From IMG/VR virus record IMGVR_UViG_3300027763_002006, positions 28,216 through 92,215 of that record: 64,000 nt of DNA; one strand, 5' to 3'. The DNA comes from a virus. The notes under the pieces are model-generated. The model saw only the letters and a program-made list of their open reading frames with translations, was not told the origin of the DNA and did no database searches. Shown in pieces: positions 2,239 to 64,000 of the stretch (position 1 is its first letter; each line of letters begins with the position of its first letter). The translations under genes were made by a program, and so were the position numbers.

Positions 2239-3201
2239 TTAAACCACAAATTCTTTAAAATCAAAACCATGGGCAGACATTAATTCTAAGTTTTTTTCGT
2301 GCCATATTCTAAAGTAGTAGTAAAATTGATTTGAATTTATTTCAAATATATCTTCCAAATAGCCCTTGTTAAAACATTTTGAAAAATCAATTTGTTTATA
2401 ATTATAAAATTCATTGCAAACAAAATTACATTGTAATACGTGACTTTCGTAGTCGCCATATAATTTATTTTCATATTTGTTGAATAAATCTTTAACACTT
2501 GAATTAATTAATTCACGGGGAGAATTAAATTCTTTGGAAATATACCGGTTAAAAATAGACATAACGGTTAGTAAAGGTATTCTGCTGACATTTAATTTAT
2601 CGATCTCTTCTAAATAAGCATCGATATTAAATATTTCTATACTATTGCGGTGTTTCTCTGTTTCTTGATGATGTTTAATCATATCAACAGCCATTGTATT
2701 TTTTAATGAACACAGTATATTTGCATACTTAAACCATACTTGTTTATCTTGAAACAAATAATAAGTTTTGTTATTAAAATATTGATTTATAATTGTGTGC
2801 GATCTAAATAATGGATTTTTACAGTTCTTTAAATATTCATCAACTTCAGTGAGTATGTCATTTAATTGTTGCTTATTATAGCGTTGATTAAAAATTGTAG
2901 CCAGCGAACTTTCTATATCAATTTTATTATATTCTTTGGGATTATAACTGGGTGTATCGGAAGGACACGAACTAATTATTATATTATAAAATTCGGGGTA
3001 TTTTAGTACAGTTCTATTAATTTCCTGGTTTATAATTAGATCGTATTTTTGATTTTTAAATTTATTGGAAAAAATATCAAGTTGATGAGTTAAAAATTCT
3101 CCGCCACTTCCGCCTTTAAACATAAAGAAACTCTGTGGCACTGACAGAGTTTCTCTTATTTTAGCTTCTAAATTTGTAATGCCACGATGGATTATTGCCA
3201 T
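2239..3201 (-). CDS. Hypothetical protein (possible sulfotransferase-like fold)
   Basis: 320 aa ORF with N-terminal FKGGSGGEFL loop. Confidence 0.5.
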   Translation of the reverse strand: MAIIHRGITNLEAKIRETLSVPQSFFMFKGGSGGEFLTHQLDIFSNKFKNQKYDLIINQEINRTVLKYPEFYNIIISSCPSDTPSYNPKEYNKIDIESSLATIFNQRYNKQQLNDILTEVDEYLKNCKNPLFRSHTIINQYFNNKTYYLFQDKQVWFKYANILCSLKNTMAVDMIKHHQETEKHRNSIEIFNIDAYLEEIDKLNVSRIPLLTVMSIFNRYISKEFNSPRELINSSVKDLFNKYENKLYGDYESHVLQCNFVCNEFYNYKQIDFSKCFNKGYLEDIFEINSNQFYYYFRIWHEKNLELMSAHGFDFKEFVV

Positions 3202-3224
3202 ATAGTATTATCAAAGCAAGCCCT

Positions 3225-3302
3225 TCATACAGGACTGTAAGGATTTCTTTTAGTGTCCGTTCCATCATCTTCGGGCCACACTGGATAGTCATTGGGGTTC
3301 AT
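3225..3302 (-). CDS. 25-aa micro-ORF MNPNDYPVWPEDDGTDTKRNPYSPV
   Basis: ATG overlaps the TAA of the nuclease gene (TAATG); fills the intergenic gap. Confidence 0.5.
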   Translation of the reverse strand: MNPNDYPVWPEDDGTDTKRNPYSPV

Positions 3303-3751
3303 TAGTTGCACCAGCTTTGTTTGGCCTCACCGTAGTATTCACGGGCAAAGCCGTTCTTGATCAACAAACCACGTAGGCTAACATTATTATCTAAAATAAT
3401 ATCGCCCAGCATACGGCCACCGTATTTGTCCCAGCTTAATACTGCTACACGGGCTGTTTTACTTTCAGTGATAACTTTCTTAGTAAATGCTGTGGCAGCT
3501 TCGCCTCGTTGTGCTTCACTAGGGCATAACGCTCTGTGACCTTTTTCTGGAGTGTCAACGCCGAATACACGAATGCTCATTTTCTTGGCCAATGGATCCG
3601 GTACCCAAGGTGTGGCAACTTCCACAGTGTCGCCATCTACAACACGGTTTATTTTCCAGTCATATATGACCATTGGCTTTTCTTTAGGTGCAGTTTGAGC
3701 ACTTGCTACTGTGCATATAGACAGTAATAGTATTGATATAATTCTTTTCAT
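3302..3751 (-). CDS. Thermonuclease (SNase-like) with signal peptide
   Basis: RVVDGDT, IRVFGVDTPE, DKYGGRMLG, LIKNGFAREY motifs; start moved to MKRIISILL. Confidence 0.9.
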   Translation of the reverse strand: MKRIISILLLSICTVASAQTAPKEKPMVIYDWKINRVVDGDTVEVATPWVPDPLAKKMSIRVFGVDTPEKGHRALCPSEAQRGEAATAFTKKVITESKTARVAVLSWDKYGGRMLGDIILDNNVSLRGLLIKNGFAREYYGEAKQSWCN

Positions 3752-27400: not shown

Positions 27401-28559
27401 GTATCTCCCCTAGGCTGTCAAATGCTTGTTCTATTTCTTGTCTGGTAGTATAACAAGCCCAACTAAGTCTTAACAGGCCATTGTTACTAATTTGTGCTAT
27501 CAGTGGTTCTGCACACAATTTTCCACTGCGAATCATAATGTTCTTGGCATCCAGCATCATTGTATAATCTTCTACTTCGCCAACAACCGGATCTAAGCAG
27601 ATTAGTCCGGAGTCTGTTCGACTAGCCGGAGTAAATTGTGCCAAGGATATGTGGTCGTTGGTAATTCTAGCAAGTCCGATATCATGAGATTCTATTTCAT
27701 CGTGATGTTCGATTAACCAATTAACGAGTTTAGGCAGTGTGCAAATAGCCGCAAGATTCTGTGTACCACTTTCAAACTTGCCGGCATTGGTTTGCCAAGT
27801 CACTGAATCCACGCTTACACTGGTAACTGTGCCGCCGCCCGGACGTACTGGATTGAAATTTAGCCACACTGGATCTATCAGCAAACATCCCAGGCCCATA
27901 GGTCCGTAAACTTTGTGCCAACTCCAAGCAACAAAGTCGAATCCACTGATGTCTATTCTACGCTTACTAACGATTTGACTAGCGTCAATTACACTCACTG
28001 CCGCAACATCCAGGGCAATCTTTTTAATTCCATCTAAATCGTTGACCAGTCCAAGGACATTGCTAACAGCATTTACAGCAATGACTTTTGCCACGGCCAT
28101 TGGTTCTGCTTTAATTTTTGTTTTTAAATCATTTAAATCTAAACGGCCATCTTTGTCTAACTCAATGAAAACAACTCGCCATTTAGCATTACCAGACTGT
28201 GTCCAGGGCAAGATTAAACTGTGATGACTATCAATGCCAACAAATACTACACCGGATGACATTGCACTCATAATCATTGACGCGGCATCATTCAATCCCT
28301 GTGTCGTGCCACTGTTAAACACAATACGCTGTTCGGGTTTGTTAATGTTTAACCATTTACCTATGAGTTCTTTGCTAGATTGATATTGTTGGTCAACATA
28401 AGTGCCCATGCTATTGCCGCTTCGATGTGCATTGCTTTTATTACTCAACATAAAGTCTTGCATATCTTCGACAACGGTGTACAATGTTTGACTTGTGGCT
28501 GCACTGTCAAGATAAATTATATCTTGTCTACGTTTGAAGAAAGGAAAATATTCACGCAT
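27375..28559 (-). CDS. sufS: Cysteine desulfurase SufS (group II)
   Basis: IYLDSAATSQ, SNVLG, DASQ, SWHKVYGP (PLP Lys), FESGT, IRSGKLCA (catalytic Cys). Confidence 0.88.
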   Translation of the reverse strand: MREYFPFFKRRQDIIYLDSAATSQTLYTVVEDMQDFMLSNKSNAHRSGNSMGTYVDQQYQSSKELIGKWLNINKPEQRIVFNSGTTQGLNDAASMIMSAMSSGVVFVGIDSHHSLILPWTQSGNAKWRVVFIELDKDGRLDLNDLKTKIKAEPMAVAKVIAVNAVSNVLGLVNDLDGIKKIALDVAAVSVIDASQIVSKRRIDISGFDFVAWSWHKVYGPMGLGCLLIDPVWLNFNPVRPGGGTVTSVSVDSVTWQTNAGKFESGTQNLAAICTLPKLVNWLIEHHDEIESHDIGLARITNDHISLAQFTPASRTDSGLICLDPVVGEVEDYTMMLDAKNIMIRSGKLCAEPLIAQISNNGLLRLSWACYTTRQEIEQAFDSLGEIHARLSKHV

Positions 28560-56813: not shown

Positions 56814-57412
56814 TTGAATTCTTCCCAATTAAATAAAAATTCACTGTCCAACTTTTCGTATATCAGCCATTGCTTAGTATAGTTGATTTCTAATGGAAAG
56901 TCAAGTACTGTCGCGCCATTATAGAATAATCGTCGCGGAGTTCGGCCAGAAATTCTAGTAGCACTTTCTCCGGCACGAGTTCTAATACATACTTTGATTA
57001 AATTTTTATTATAATCATTAAATGTCAATGTAATAAATTTACATTTGTTTTTAACTGCCCATGCCTTACATGCAGGGAGAATGTATTCGGCAACTAATAA
57101 TTTGTTTCTATGTTCAGTATGTGCCCATGTTCTGATACCTGCCATTGCAATATCTTCGGTCCATTCACTGAAGTAAACGCCGCCGCTGGCCACTGGTAAT
57201 TTATCGTCAAACAACACAAAGTATTTACCGTGATCGAATTTATTTTCTACTTCTAATATATAGCGCAGAGTATTATTTTCATTTCGCCAAGTTTTGCTGT
57301 GCATATTGACCATGGCAGGACTGGTATCTTTTTGACATTCTGATTCTATAGTGTCCCAAAAATGTTGTAGTTCTGATTTGGTTAATTTATTGTATTCTTT
57401 TACTTTGTACAT
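56771..57412 (-). CDS. GNAT-like hypothetical protein
   Basis: VASGG, RTWAHTEHRNK resembling acetyltransferase motif A. Confidence 0.45.
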   Translation of the reverse strand: MYKVKEYNKLTKSELQHFWDTIESECQKDTSPAMVNMHSKTWRNENNTLRYILEVENKFDHGKYFVLFDDKLPVASGGVYFSEWTEDIAMAGIRTWAHTEHRNKLLVAEYILPACKAWAVKNKCKFITLTFNDYNKNLIKVCIRTRAGESATRISGRTPRRLFYNGATVLDFPLEINYTKQWLIYEKLDSEFLFNWEEFKWQDKIKIVKRKLG

Positions 57413-58155
57413 ACTAGTTTAATTACCCATGTCAAAGGATCTATTTCCCAGAATTTATATGTTGTGCTGGGATTCTTTGCGTCGCCGTGATGATTATTGT
57501 GCCATGCTTCGCCTAGTATAATGGGCCAAAGCCATGCATTATTTCTACTATGGTCTTTTGTTTCGTAATTACGATAACCAAATTTGTGACCAAAATAATT
57601 AAAATTGCTGGTACTAAGTTGTATTAGCATTGCAGGCACTAGCCAAGCCCAATAAAATAATTGTAGATCTATTAAAGCTAATATAGAAATTACGAATAGT
57701 AATAAAATCATGTACCATTTATGTATAAACAATTGGGCCGGTGTCATTAATTCTTTAACCAAGAATATCTTCATTTCACCTTCTTGTTGTTTCATATGTC
57801 CAAAGCCAAACAATTTATATCCTAAATTATGCGGGCTATGCGGGTCTTTGTCTTGGTCACTGTATGCATGATGCAATCTATGTAAATAGACCCAGCCTAA
57901 AATACTGCCGCGACCTGTTAATAAAGCAATAACAGAGAACAACCATTTAAGCACAGGGTTCAGTGCAAAACTTTTATGACTATAATATCTATGAAATGTC
58001 ATCCATACTCCCAGGATGTTCAAAACATAAAAACTTGTCAACATGATTAGTATGTTGCTTAATGTATAATCAACAAAAAACAATCCAACTATGCTGTTAA
58101 TAAAAACAAAAATAGTTAGTAGATTTATATTTCTACTTGTGGATCCAAATATCAT
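57400..58155 (-). CDS. Fatty-acid desaturase (delta-9 type)
   Basis: His boxes HRYYSH, HRLHH, HNNHH. Confidence 0.9.
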   Translation of the reverse strand: MIFGSTSRNINLLTIFVFINSIVGLFFVDYTLSNILIMLTSFYVLNILGVWMTFHRYYSHKSFALNPVLKWLFSVIALLTGRGSILGWVYLHRLHHAYSDQDKDPHSPHNLGYKLFGFGHMKQQEGEMKIFLVKELMTPAQLFIHKWYMILLLFVISILALIDLQLFYWAWLVPAMLIQLSTSNFNYFGHKFGYRNYETKDHSRNNAWLWPIILGEAWHNNHHGDAKNPSTTYKFWEIDPLTWVIKLVCTK

Positions 58156-58931
58156 CGTCTAATTAATTCAATGACTCTGGCCGCAGGATCAAATTCCCAC
58201 CACTTGCCACTGGTGCCACTTCCAAAGTCATAGTTACCAGGACGAGCATGATGGTTATTATGCCAACCTTCACCAAAGGTTAGTATTGCATTAATCCAAA
58301 GATTTCGACTGTTATCGCTGGTTTGGAAATTCTTATATCCCCACTTATGATTTGTATAGTTGCTGATAGTACTGCTCCATACGCTGAACACCGCAGGGAT
58401 AATAACAACGTGCATGGCCAACACGGGATCTATAACAGCCCAGAATATTGTCCATAATAATAACAGACCAAAGTACCACTTGTGCATAAAGATATGATAC
58501 TTGTCAAAAATCAAGTGTCGTATTTTCCATTTGTTTGGCTCATAGTCATAGGCAGCTACCAACATCTTGGGACCACTGACCATGGGACTATGTGGGTCGC
58601 CTGGCTTGTCACTGTATTTGTGATGATCTCTGTGCATACCAACCCAGCCAATGGCACTGCCTGTAAATGCCAACGCTCCCCAAGTGGCACAAAAGTATTC
58701 CCAGAATTTACTGGTCTTAAAACTTTTATGTGTTAATAATCTATGAAAGCCAATGCTGATACCAAGGCCGCCTATGCCCACATACATCAGCACACTTAGT
58801 AACCACAGTAGACCAACCTGCGGTAAAAGGAATGCATAGAGTAGAACCAGTGCTGTGGCACTGAGTTGTACATATGGCAAGTACTGCGTGTTAGATGCAA
58901 GAGCATTATTGATGATTCGTTTGTAGGACAT
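58152..58931 (-). CDS. Fatty-acid desaturase (delta-9 type)
   Basis: His boxes HRLLTH, HRDHH, HNNHH. Confidence 0.92.
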   Translation of the reverse strand: MSYKRIINNALASNTQYLPYVQLSATALVLLYAFLLPQVGLLWLLSVLMYVGIGGLGISIGFHRLLTHKSFKTSKFWEYFCATWGALAFTGSAIGWVGMHRDHHKYSDKPGDPHSPMVSGPKMLVAAYDYEPNKWKIRHLIFDKYHIFMHKWYFGLLLLWTIFWAVIDPVLAMHVVIIPAVFSVWSSTISNYTNHKWGYKNFQTSDNSRNLWINAILTFGEGWHNNHHARPGNYDFGSGTSGKWWEFDPAARVIELIRR

Positions 58932-59789: not shown

Positions 59790-59920
59790 ACTTTATAGGT
59801 GCTCTCTGTGACGCTTGAATTCCTGGTAGCCCCACTCTTCATGGCCGGTCCTTGTCATGGTCGACATTGACAAGTATTTCGGTGTTCCATTGTAGCTACT
59901 ACAGAAAGCACGTATAAAGT
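59790..59920 (-). ncRNA. Rod-shaped structured RNA (6S-like candidate)
   Basis: ~19-bp closing stem plus nested GTAGC/GCTAC, ATGG/CCAT, CCG/CGG, CTTGTCA/TGACAAG helices. Confidence 0.6.
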
Positions 59921-60118
59921 GTTTAGCTACTCACACCACATGAGCCCTAAACTGAGCGGTTACTCTGTCCATAACATTTGTTCTTTTGGGCAGGTGTTAT
60001 ACCTTACCTAATGCGTTCCCGCCACTCCACAACAGAGCACAGATGGTCATTGCACTACAAACCTAGCACTCTTTATGGTGACTGCCCCACCCACTTTAGA
60101 CGTCAAAGTGTAACCGGG
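59921..60118 (-). ncRNA. Multi-stem pseudoknotted RNA (manA-motif-like candidate)
   Basis: CGGTTAC/GTAACCG, CACTTT/AAAGTG, GGTG/CACC, ATAACA/TGTTAT, GTTTAG/CTAAAC; loop-loop GGGCAG/CTGCCC. Confidence 0.6.
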
Positions 60119-60303: not shown

Positions 60304-60379
60304 TGGTTGCGGGGGAAGGACTCGAACCTCCGTCTTCCAGGTTATGAGCCTGATAGTCTACCAACTGACGTACCCCGCG
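60304..60379 (-). tRNA. tRNA-Met(CAU), initiator (fMet) type
   Basis: CGCGGGG 5' end with C1:A72 mismatch, loop CTCATAA, encoded CCA. Confidence 0.9.
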
Positions 60380-60388
60380 GTATGCTAT

Positions 60389-60958
60389 TTATAATAATTC
60401 TTCTGACTTCAGTGTTTGAACTGTGTCTACACTTAGACTGATGTCAGTACGCACATTCAATTCCAGCACTTCGTCTTGAAGACGTTGTTTGGCTTTCTTG
60501 GCTAGATTTACAAAAACTTTAAAGCCCTTGATGTCTTCTTCGGTGAACACACTGGTAGTTACTGTGCTTTCGTAACCATAGATACTGCGACCTTCTTCTT
60601 TACGATTTTTAATCTTGTCCAACTTGCCCAACACAACTGCTTCTTGTTCGCGAACTGCAAAGCCAGACAACTCTGTGTAGTTCTGAATTTGCTTTTCAAG
60701 ACAGGCAATCTCTGTGAGTTTGTCATCTATGCCCACACGACTGTTAACTGCACTGACTTGCTTACGGATGTCGTAGAGTGCTTTAATCAAAGAATCTCGA
60801 CGATTCAAATTAGTTTTAAAGGCAGTCGTAGCTTTATAAATTTCCATGACCGGATCATGGAATTCTGTTAGACTAACTTGACCTTTAAGGTCGATGCCTT
60901 TGACGGCATCATTGATGCTGTTCTGCAATACACTGGCTTTACGTAGACTGATATTCAT
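60389..60958 (-). CDS. DIP1984/DUF6847-like coiled-coil protein
   Basis: All-helical; ISLRKA..LQ.., IRKQVSAVN and C-terminal LQDEVLELNVRTDI patterns (recognised by eye, unverified). Confidence 0.55.
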   Translation of the reverse strand: MNISLRKASVLQNSINDAVKGIDLKGQVSLTEFHDPVMEIYKATTAFKTNLNRRDSLIKALYDIRKQVSAVNSRVGIDDKLTEIACLEKQIQNYTELSGFAVREQEAVVLGKLDKIKNRKEEGRSIYGYESTVTTSVFTEEDIKGFKVFVNLAKKAKQRLQDEVLELNVRTDISLSVDTVQTLKSEELL

Positions 60959-60974
60959 ATATTTCCTTTAAATA

Positions 60975-61003
60975 ATTATACAACAAAATAAAAACAGAGT
61001 CAA
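60975..61003 (-). promoter_or_regulatory. sigma70-type promoter
   Basis: TTGACT-17-TATAAT; SD AAGGA. Confidence 0.75.
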
Positions 61004-61232
61004 GAAAGAAAGTAACCAACTGGACAAATAACATGCGGATTAGCTTTAACTAAAATCCTGACAAGTCACAATGCACAAGGCACAGGGACCTGCGTATATC
61101 CAGGAGCAAGACACAATTCTGTCATATCCCAAGGGTTGGAGCACACAAGCACGAGGCGTTTTCAAGGCGCCAGCCAGTAATTGTTCGGTATCGCATGAAG
61201 CGATAACGGATGTTAGTTCTCGTCTCTTTCTT
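61002..61232 (-). ncRNA. Closed multi-hairpin RNA with 7-nt-period YUGU repeats
   Basis: Terminal AAGAAAGA/TCTTTCTT and AACTAAC/GTTGGTT pairing, five internal hairpins, ~10-11 heptamer motifs in linkers. Confidence 0.65.
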
Positions 61233-61281
61233 TTCTCCGGGTAGTTATCCTGGGAGACATACTACCAAAAAACTTTAATCT

Positions 61282-61440
61282 TTACTTTTCTTTTGGACCG
61301 CGCTTGCTACTACGCAATTCGGATTCAAATACTTTTACAAAACTTTGTAGAATTTCTCCACGCTTATGTGGATCTGTTTCATAGGCCGCAAAACGCTTGA
61401 TTGCTTTGGGGATTTTAACTGCTCGTGAATCGTATGCCAT
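61282..61440 (-). CDS. 52-aa basic hypothetical protein MAYDSRAVKIPKAIKR...
   Basis: Manually found; SD AAGGA. Confidence 0.6.
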   Translation of the reverse strand: MAYDSRAVKIPKAIKRFAAYETDPHKRGEILQSFVKVFESELRSSKRGPKEK

Positions 61441-61457: not shown

Positions 61458-61655
61458 TTATTTTTGACCTTGTGCAATCAGTCTATTAACTACATTGAGG
61501 TCGAACTCTAAACTAGAGATTTTTTCTTTAAGTGCTTGGTATTCTTCGCTGTGAACATCTTTATTATGAGTTACAATGTCAAAGTACATTGCTGAAGCTT
61601 CTGCGTGTAGCTTTCTAACATCATGTTCTAATAACTCTCGTCTATCTGCTAACAT
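61458..61655 (-). CDS. Small coiled-coil hypothetical protein
   Basis: 65 aa; SD AAGGA. Confidence 0.55.
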   Translation of the reverse strand: MLADRRELLEHDVRKLHAEASAMYFDIVTHNKDVHSEEYQALKEKISSLEFDLNVVNRLIAQGQK

Positions 61656-61761: not shown

Positions 61762-61790
61762 ATTATAACAAAACTCGCACAAGCTGTCAA
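61762..61790 (-). promoter_or_regulatory. sigma70-type promoter of tRNA-Asp
   Basis: TTGACA-17-TATAAT. Confidence 0.8.
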
Positions 61791-63895: not shown

Positions 63896-64000
63896 ATGTA
63901 GATGCTCTGCATCCCCCGGCGGTAATTATAGAGTATCAAGATATGACGCTATCATACCCATCACACACTCCTTCCACCCGCTTCCCGACAGGGACCGTTC
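63896..64000 (-). ncRNA. 3' part of a second rod-shaped structured RNA (truncated)
   Basis: GC-rich; nested TCCC/GGGA, GCGG/CCGC, GAGTGT/ATACTC, GGTATGA/TCATATC; ends AGAGCATCTA. Confidence 0.45.

Follow-up and report, generated by a model that had tools for sequence, protein, structure and literature searches.

A new structured RNA family with seven-nucleotide UUGY repeats, encoded beside one phage protein family

What does a phage gain from a non-coding stretch full of short repeats that lies in its tRNA cluster, and does this stretch work together with the protein gene next to it? The locus that raises this question belongs to the IMG/VR virus record IMGVR_UViG_3300027763_002006, of which we analysed positions 28,216 to 92,215, a DNA of 64,000 nucleotides (nt) called here the window. 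The source record has a length of 92 kb at a CheckV completeness of 26%, and is therefore that of a giant freshwater phage. An earlier reading made from the letters alone (the sequence-only reading) had noticed, on the minus strand, a repeat-bearing non-coding element beside a gene for a helical protein of 189 amino acids (aa), and had proposed that the RNA wraps or scaffolds an oligomer of this protein, or sponges a host protein, as a ribonucleoprotein (RNP). Our data show that the element is a genuine structured RNA constituting a new RNA family, and that its adjacency to one protein family is obligate, in both gene orders and in distant phage lineages.

The RNA nature of the element is established by folding, by covariation and by the strand on which its helices can form. 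The stretch folds at -83.4 kcal/mol, with a z score of -2.9 relative to shuffled sequences. A covariance model, R1, was built from 14 distinct copies, the RNAalifold structure of which had 17 compensated pairs, and its search returned a full-length copy in 60 of 66 sources together with two copies cut by contig ends, the window holding exactly one. In the covariation alignment of 62 copies, which was fitted to R1 and for this reason inflates the pairing figures somewhat, standard pairs fill 92.1% of the pair cells and two-sided changes occur in 45 of the 55 pairs. The covariation score of this alignment is 0.512, a value reached by none of 500 shuffles, and slid partners score between 0.06 and 0.12. 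The helices are already compensated in unfitted MAFFT alignments. Since many pairs are G-U in most copies (pair 262:384, for example, in 61 of 61), the RNA fold is restricted to the strand of the gene, in agreement with the earlier remark that part of the closing stem pairs fully only on the minus strand through G-U. The extent of 61002-61232 proposed at that time proved too short, the RNA running from about 61272 to 60985.

Known families can be excluded, as no match was found in Rfam 15 for positions 60900-61320 of the window even at E<=10, and a scan of the entire window at the Rfam gathering threshold returned tRNAs only. RNase P RNA, transfer-messenger RNA (tmRNA), 6S RNA, Y RNA, OMEGA RNAs, retron RNA and pRNA were considered as candidates and rejected, with neither an Rfam match nor a fitting partner gene. 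A plus-strand open reading frame (ORF) of 57 aa across the element (61071-61244) was also discarded, the insertions and deletions of the relatives not being multiples of three.

The RNA consists of a 5' terminal hairpin (P0), a long closing helix (P1), a folded body (P2 to P5) and the repeats, for which the coordinates are given in Table 1. The closing helix is made of three parts and is 93-98% paired overall, with 16 of its 21 pairs compensated in the 62 copies. Its segments AAGAAAG/CUUUCUU and GAGAACUAAC/GUUGGUUAC form 17 pairs, 95-98% paired, of which 12 are compensated, which makes the closing stem of the sequence-only reading a real one; its outer segment, GGAG/CUCY, adds 4 bp that are 93% paired and compensated at all four pairs. 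Two crossing pairings had been suspected upstream of this stem: GGUAGU/ACUACC covaries at six of six pairs and is the hairpin P0, the tip of which is a GNRA tetraloop in two relatives (L008 and L009), and UCUCC/GGAGA is absent in relatives, where the P0 loops differ. Among the five hairpins described inside the stem, UAUCGC/GCGAUA (P2), GGCG/CGCC (P3) and GGAUU/AAUCC (P8) covary, whereas CCUG/CAGG has to be abandoned as a local hairpin, its bases belonging to the covarying long-range helices P4 and P4a. Helix P3 becomes UCAG/CUGA in L009 and CUGGGC/GCCUAG in L025, P8 becomes GAGAUU/AAUCUC, GAAAUU/AAUUUC or GGUAAA/UUUACC, and P2 is replaced in the L025 clade by a longer hairpin of unrelated sequence. 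In the P4/P4a/P5 domain, helices 6-8 are 89-99% paired with 12 of 16 pairs compensated. The weakest helices of the alignment are the two placed by RNAalifold inside the four-repeat track (track B), which are 76-78% paired.

The repeats are eight (Y)UGY motifs that follow each other in the window RNA with an exact period of 7 nt and are grouped 2 + 4 + 2 (pair A, track B and pair C in Table 1). The 10 to 11 copies counted earlier thus come down to about eight, and the CUCGUG-CUUGUGU taken at first for linker heptamers (61143-61155) is the 5' strand of helix P4. Track B is unique in the window, where the four-heptad pattern has one match for 0.01 expected, and four in-phase NUG motifs are kept in 62 of 62 copies, with partner proteins down to 43% identity with the window protein. 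Its consensus over these copies is CUGUrnn-UUGUnnn-UUGYnnn-UUGYnnn, with 1.4-2.0 bits of information at the U before UG, 0.9-1.5 bits at the pyrimidine after it and 0.1-0.5 bits at the three spacer positions. The 7-nt periodicity is accordingly a feature of the RNA, with UUGY conserved and the spacers drifting, and the two shorter runs proposed with it are conserved in relatives as well. A strict 4+2 layout of UGY is found in 44 of the 62 copies, with an intervening hairpin of 12-28 nt; P8 is missing in L064 and in the phages CcrColossus and CcrPW (see below), in which the six heptads are then contiguous. In the window, UUGUG occurs four times for 0.77 expected (P=0.003) and UUG spacings of 7, 14 and 21 are enriched (P=0.009). 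Elsewhere in the window there is no second site with three or more heptads, and hence no candidate mRNA target. A short motif in exact phase with freely varying spacers is the mark of a reader present in several identical copies, as for TRAP or HutP. Two other interpretations of the heptads were rejected: mimics of anticodon loops, since position 33 is not U and a pyrimidine follows UG, and a string of start codons for the initiator tRNA, since nearly all copies have U as their first letter and the Caulobacter and Brevundimonas phages have lost the link with tRNA.

The association of the RNA with the protein gene was followed in both directions. An initial IMG/VR search with the 189-aa protein gave 12 loci, 11 of which have the RNA conserved upstream of the gene; conversely, a search by the invariant core of the RNA alone gave 11 viral and 14 metagenome contigs, and the protein gene is present on 25 of 25. 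A profile-guided scan of IMG/VR detected at least 327 loci with relatives of the protein, and among the best 80 of the 327, which were examined, nhmmer and R1 placed the RNA beside the gene on the same strand in 76. The remaining four end at a contig edge on one side, and there is no confirmed gene without the RNA. The RNA stands upstream of the gene in about 52 of the 80 loci, either immediately before it or with a small ORF between, and downstream in 24, either right after the stop codon or after a tRNA-Met. In seven close relatives, a promoter of its own (TTGACA-17-TATAAT) lies just before P0, and in four close relatives P0 begins a few bases after the 3' end of a tRNA. Because of these starts and of the 24 loci with the RNA downstream, the element would not be merely a leader, and the comparison of relatives supports the earlier claim that it is not simply the 5' untranslated region of the protein gene. 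P0, a long P1, six or more (Y)UGY heptads in phase and, beside them on the same strand, a gene of the protein family are the features by which we propose to define the new family; they are found together in the window, in 62 relatives and in cultured phages.

These cultured phages infect Caulobacter and Brevundimonas and were reached by an indirect route. No match was obtained by tblastn of the window protein against cultured phages, and blastn of the region returned matches to tRNA-Met only. A search of BFVD with the AF2 model of the protein matched uncultured phages and Caulobacter phage CcrColossus (template modelling score, TM, 0.81), and the family profile recognises CcrColossus gp272 at E 2.5e-17. 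At the level of CcrColossus, CcrPW and five Brevundimonas phages, protein identity is 20-26%. Immediately after gp272, at 201,299-201,582 of JX100810, lies an unannotated gap of 284 nt, which folds at z -4.84. In it are found a 5' hairpin, a strand rich in purines that is paired to the 3' end, the heptads UUGU-GGG-UUGC-GCG-UUGU-CCG-UUGU-AGC-UUGC-CCU-UUGU-CCAG and, at the position of heptad pair A, UUGUUGU UUGUUCC. CcrPW and the five Brevundimonas jumbo phages have unannotated gaps of 286-314 nt after the gene, with P0, a compensated P1 and UG invariant every 7 nt, and the gaps of the cultured phages hold six or seven UG heptads each. In the 280-kb genome of CcrColossus and the 308-kb genome of CcrPW, this four-heptad pattern occurs nowhere else, the reversed control giving 0 matches. 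The GC-rich CcrColossus copy was not detected by R1 and was recognised by eye and by the heptad pattern; Rfam gave no match on this locus at E<=1. Phage KVP40 has neither a profile match nor a heptad track, and the likeness in BFVD to Vibrio phage Vp_R1 and Erwinia phage pEa_SNUABM_47 is unconfirmed. No annotated tRNA is present in the 10 kb around the CcrColossus pair, nor within about 1 kb of the pair in the related Caulobacter and Brevundimonas phages examined, which makes the tRNA context a property of certain clades, unlike the RNA-gene pairing. The phages of Caulobacter and Brevundimonas also have, about 1 kb upstream of the pair, a gene resembling those of phosphoribosyltransferases (CcrColossus, L120, 198,139-199,672; Kikimora, L122) and, after the RNA, a conserved ORF of 82 aa (L120, L122).

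Concerning the 189-aa protein, sequence searches of Pfam, NCBIfam, PHROGs, PADLOC and PDB gave no meaningful match. Weak rows for Ku80, ParB-HTH and the like (E 0.008-0.9) were judged to be chance, and Pfam has nothing at E<=0.1 and one weak FliE row (E 0.11) at E<=10. The family amounts to 1543 clusters at E<=1e-3 and is almost purely viral, Atlas clusters being 84-100% viral; an N-terminal LRKA motif, R65, K157, D162 and N168 are invariant in the superfamily. The AF2 model (predicted local distance difference test, pLDDT, 89) is a long helical hairpin with short terminal strands. Its best and only full-length match among solved folds is 3kdq_A, an uncharacterised protein of C. diphtheriae which we take to be DIP1984 itself. 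Foldseek gives this match at E 0.023, with a probability of 1.0 and TM 0.46-0.55, and VIA-align at Z 10.9, in a range (below about 13) where matches between helical proteins can be chance, with a root-mean-square deviation of 5.8, 140 of 152 residues and 18% identity. In the Atlas, a neighbour cluster of which 19% of the members carry PF20935, the DIP1984/DUF6847 family, has a score of 0.92. The PF20935 hidden Markov model (cut-off 27 bits) finds no match at E<=10 in the window protein or the six-frame genome record, and none at E<=1 in seven distant family members; relative to DIP1984/DUF6847, the phage proteins are also about 40 residues longer. The DIP1984/DUF6847-like label of the sequence-only reading therefore holds as a reasonable lead at the level of the fold, with support from the fold comparison and the language model, and not as family membership. 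In the literature, no function is given for DUF6847 and no RNA partner is reported.

The prediction of a homodimer passed, with 0.72 against 0.00 for the best of three controls, a contact agreement of at least 94% between runs and a partner pLDDT of at least 89. Among proteins of solved structure, 20 of the 30 that are pairs of one chain attain this mark, as does 1 of the 23 that are single chains; these counts are approximate, since our own alignment was used. The model thus supports a self-association of the 189-aa protein as a homodimer, which fits a multimeric reader and says nothing on RNA binding.

In the window, the pair lies on the minus strand within a cluster of tRNA-Tyr, Asp, Met, Gly and Pro. 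The order from 5' to 3' on this strand is a 12/12 promoter (61790-61762), tRNA-Asp, an ORF of 65 aa, an ORF of 52 aa, the RNA, an 11/12 promoter, the 189-aa ORF and tRNA(CAU). No promoter was found directly upstream of P0 in the window, and the 12/12 promoter is the likely source of the transcript carrying the RNA in this phage. The TTGACT-17-TATAAT promoter that overlaps the 3' end of the RNA, and that separates the RNA body from the gene, had been recognised from the start. It scores 11 of 12 letters and is conserved in 13 of 14 close relatives; no short intrinsic terminator was found between the RNA and the gene on this strand. Of 96 loci, 31 have a homologue of the basic 52-aa ORF, which stands between the RNA and the 189-aa gene or else upstream of the RNA, and its product may be an accessory component of the module. 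The 65-aa ORF (61458-61655, minus strand), between tRNA-Asp and the 52-aa ORF, is helical and has Pfam rows at chance level (Imm40, E 0.018).

Table 1. Features of the RNA/protein locus, in positions of the window
Feature	Position	Strand	Remarks
Structured non-coding RNA gene, about 285 nt	60985-61272	-	R1 match 60980-61274, cmsearch 295.9 bits
P0, 5' terminal hairpin GGUAGU...ACUACC after a U-run	61240-61266	-	all 6 pairs compensated, 94% paired
P1, 5' strand, purine-rich: CGGAG AA AAGAAAG AGAC GAGAACUAAC	61212-61239	-	helices 2-4
P1, 3' strand: GUUGGUUAC.UUUCUUUCUU..CUCUG	60995-61020	-	followed by U-rich tract 60981-60994
P2 hairpin GUAUCGC-UUCAU-GCGAUAC	61188-61207	-	helix 5 of the covariation analysis
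P3 hairpin GGCG...CGCC	61155-61171	-	covarying
P4/P4a/P5 domain	61088-61152	-	GCUUGUGUG pairs with UACGCAGGU; CCA with UGG; inner hairpin GACA/UGUC
Heptad pair A, UUGUGUC UUGCUCC	61103-61116	-	3' side of P5; consensus tTGtnatTTGnt in 62 copies
Heptad track B, CUGUGCC UUGUGCA UUGUGAC UUGUCAG	61058-61085	-	four heptads, single-stranded
P8, variable hairpin between heptads 4 and 5	61037-61058	-	covarying
Heptad pair C, AUGUUAU UUGUCCA	61021-61034	-	UUUGUCCAG kept in CcrColossus too
Sigma-70-type promoter TTGACT-17-TATAAT	60975-61003	-	11 of 12 consensus letters; overlaps RNA 3' end, drives into 189-aa gene
189-aa helical protein gene	60389-60958	-	conserved RNA neighbour
tRNA(CAU), initiator type (C1xA72)	60304-60379	-	frequent third neighbour of the RNA/gene pair
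Basic 52-aa ORF (MAYDSRAVKIPKAIKR...)	61282-61440	-	accessory neighbour
Consensus promoter	61762-61790	-	12 of 12 letters; upstream of tRNA-Asp

Among the freshwater loci, the pair lies within a same-strand tRNA cluster in 39 of 41, and its nearest tRNA neighbour is very often a tRNA(CAU) with a C1xA72 mismatch, which is typical of bacterial initiator tRNA. The first letters of this tRNA in the window are CGCGG and its last letters CCGCAACCA, hence the mismatch. The same type of tRNA(CAU) is observed in loci L025, L045, L046, L049, L050, L056, L067, L069, L070 and L087, and further in L093, L094, L098, L100, L113, L116 and L117, and it remains the immediate neighbour even when the RNA switches from upstream to downstream of the gene. 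A more distant clade (L081, L082, L084, L097, L109) has ordinary G1-C72 tRNAs instead. The relative L112 carries, about 1 kb downstream of the pair, a tmRNA gene (3085-3452, plus strand) with the tag ANDELFALAA. Two further non-coding stretches lie among the tRNAs of the window cluster, at 59790-60118 (minus strand) and 63896-64000; neither is matched by R1, and they are not paralogues of the heptad RNA. Outside this ensemble, tandem membrane proteins of 251 and 259 aa are encoded at 57400-58931 (minus strand), with histidine boxes HRLLTH / HRDHH / HNNHH, and look like fatty-acid desaturases, which phages do not usually carry.

Parts of the stretch occur in six metatranscriptome runs. Four of these, from four freshwater studies, were aligned to the sequence, and contigs from all four studies cover the element, which is thus present in RNA libraries; these data consist of contigs, so that the parts of the stretch left uncovered carry no meaning. 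A contig identical to the window spans 61022-61209, within the RNA.

From these data, the following functioning can be proposed. The RNA would be made inside the phage tRNA transcription unit and, in relatives, from a dedicated promoter or directly after a tRNA; its 5' hairpin and long closing helix would protect the ends of a stable molecule of about 285 nt. The folded body P2-P5 would present a single-stranded track of six UUGY-N3 heptads, 4 + 2 around the optional hairpin, with two further heptads beside P5, and copies of the co-encoded 189-aa helical protein would read this track. With a predicted dimer as reader and heptads grouped in even numbers (2, 4, 2), about three or four dimers would bind cooperatively along the track, each protomer taking one UUGY, and a defined RNP would result. 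By analogy with CsrB/CsrA or with type III antitoxins, the most likely job of the pair would probably be one of titration, in which the RNA sets the level of free protein, or the protein stabilises the RNA, during infection. The binding, the stoichiometry and the biological role of the pair are what we infer here. To the direct binding of the heptad RNA by the co-encoded protein, which is our main explanation, we give about an even chance. That the whole would represent a new class of phage RNP, with a scaffold RNA, a DIP1984-like protein polymerised on its UUGY track as three to four dimers, a synthesis together with the tRNAs, often beside the initiator tRNA, and an action on the RNA metabolism or translation of host or phage, is a more tentative proposal.

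Several observations weigh against direct binding by the 189-aa protein. Its isoelectric point, between 6.0 and 9.0, is near neutral, no RNA-binding domain is recognisable in domain searches, and the dimer prediction may have passed because the protein resembles a solved structure, for instance 3kdq. When applied to the GC-rich cultured clade, RNAalifold puts the first heptads in a helix with the purine-rich strand, so that the heptad track may not always be single-stranded, and a simple sponge would need a less elaborate body than that of this RNA. Adjacency on the same strand is also expected from the co-transcription of unrelated genes or from cis-regulation; in this respect, three contigs from relatives, in three runs, join the 3' part of the RNA to the beginning of the gene. 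Such contigs from RNA libraries give no transcript ends, and they may come from read-through, as for a leader, or from DNA carry-over.

Part of these points would be accommodated if another multimeric protein, of the host or of the phage, read the heptads, the RNA being a decoy and the 189-aa protein belonging to the same pathway as a chaperone or an effector rather than as the reader. The periodic conservation implies a repeated reader and not which one, the near-neutral protein has no known RNA-binding domain, and in 31 of 96 loci the module comes with the basic 52-aa ORF. However, the strict co-occurrence of RNA and gene, in both orders and from freshwater phages to those of Caulobacter and Brevundimonas hosts, is explained most simply by a direct partnership, the UG core is constant across hosts while the flanking letters vary with the protein clade, and the 52-aa ORF is missing from most loci. 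We consider this other reader unlikely, without dismissing it.

The bridging contigs, the absence of a short intrinsic terminator between element and gene, and the position of the element, always on the same strand and adjoining the gene, would agree with a leader or trailer acting in cis on the translation, stability or termination of the 189-aa transcript, possibly in an autogenous manner as for the T4 gene 32 leader or the operators of ribosomal proteins. Such a role is made improbable by the conserved near-consensus promoter between the RNA body and the gene, by the switch of the element between the 5' and 3' sides of the gene, by the small ORF or tRNA-Met inserted between them in several clades, and by the end-protecting hairpin and closing helix, which are typical of a free stable RNA. 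Given its location in same-strand tRNA clusters in 39 of the 41 freshwater loci, and its frequent start a few bases after the 3' end of a tRNA, the RNA could also be seen as a by-product of tRNA-operon processing without protein partner, like T4 species 1 and 2, its repeats being a compositional quirk; this is very improbable, as the pairs of cultured phages without nearby annotated tRNA keep both the gene neighbour and the heptads, and a phase-exact UUGY with free spacers is not compositional. Finally, an element acting as DNA, such as origin iterons or a protein-binding array, to which the short direct repeats and the overlapping strong promoter might point, is hardly credible in view of compensatory changes that keep the helices, G-U pairs that would be C-A mismatches on the other strand, a 7-bp period out of phase with the DNA helix and an orientation that is always that of the transcription unit.

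Direct binding by the co-encoded protein thus keeps the first place among these explanations, and its consequences can be stated. Large phages carry many unexplained non-coding stretches; the one described here is an RNA family with strong covariation, a signature of reading by a protein and an obligate partner gene, on a scale of at least 327 IMG/VR loci and 1543 protein clusters. As the pair occurs in culturable phages of Caulobacter and Brevundimonas, with a host that is a genetic model, the hypothesis is directly testable. If binding is true, it would represent a new sequence-specific recognition of RNA, in which a helical hairpin dimer reads UUGY every 7 nt, and would point to a function for the DIP1984-like fold, which is solved and unexplained. 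If the RNP class is true, the DIP1984/DUF6847 fold would receive its first function, and a non-tRNA RNA of the tRNA clusters of phages its first role; to our knowledge, none has been assigned to such RNAs since their first observation in T4.

The pairing of this RNA with this protein had been presented as new, and no description of the pairing or of the RNA itself was found in Rfam 15 or in the searchable literature: publications on DUF6847/DIP1984, on CcrColossus RNAs, on non-coding RNAs of phage tRNA clusters and on UUGU repeats held nothing relevant, the Minerva preprint concerning other RNAs. Comparison with known systems is nevertheless instructive. The RNAs of T4 that are called species 1 and 2 (rnaC/rnaD), which we take to be stable non-tRNA RNAs of the tRNA cluster, presumably released by the tRNA-processing enzymes, resemble the heptad RNA in being non-tRNA RNAs encoded within a phage tRNA cluster; they are shorter and without known partner gene, and the heptad pair is not confined to tRNA clusters. 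Type III toxin-antitoxin systems (ToxIN, CptIN, TenpIN), which occur in phages or against them, also have a repeat RNA and a protein side by side on one strand. Their antitoxins, however, are tandem units of about 34-36 nt cut by an endoribonuclease toxin, in contrast to 7-nt units within one large fold, and the protein of the window is a helical hairpin with no match in PADLOC or Pfam. The small RNAs CsrB and RsmZ provide the working functional analogy, as free RNAs with many copies of a short protein-binding motif, for which a dimeric reader is likewise proposed here. The GGA motifs of Csr are exposed in hairpin loops at irregular spacing, whereas the heptads are phase-exact and lie in a linker; moreover, in the present pair the protein, which is not CsrA, is encoded next to the RNA, and Rfam shows no match to a CsrB/Rsm family.

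The closest parallels for the repeats themselves are found in two systems of leader recognition. In the hut antiterminator, HutP binds as a hexamer two sets of three UAG motifs with a 4-nt spacing, and the heptad RNA shares with it the 7-nt period and the arrangement of motifs in sets split by a spacer. It differs by its UUGY motif and as a phage RNA gene, not an operon leader, without terminator/antiterminator switch: no Pfam family, HutP included, matches the protein at E<=0.1, and no short terminator is found on the strand. In the trp leader of Bacillus, 11 (G/U)AG triplets are wrapped around the 11-mer ring of TRAP, and both RNAs have an in-phase single-stranded motif with unconserved spacers, which implies one motif per subunit of a multimer. 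The (G/U)AG triplets with 2-3 nt spacers and the 11-mer TRAP protein are absent from the window pair, which has UUGY rather than GAG/UAG, a period of exactly 7 nt rather than 5-6 and 6-8 copies rather than 11. Unlike the TRAP target, which is an attenuator leader, the heptad RNA is closed, structured and free-standing, and its candidate reader is a helical hairpin dimer encoded next door, whereas TRAP is a beta-sandwich ring, the gene of which lies elsewhere. New here are the motif, the architecture of the RNA, the fold of the partner and the phage setting; the reading of periodic motifs by a multimer is a known principle.

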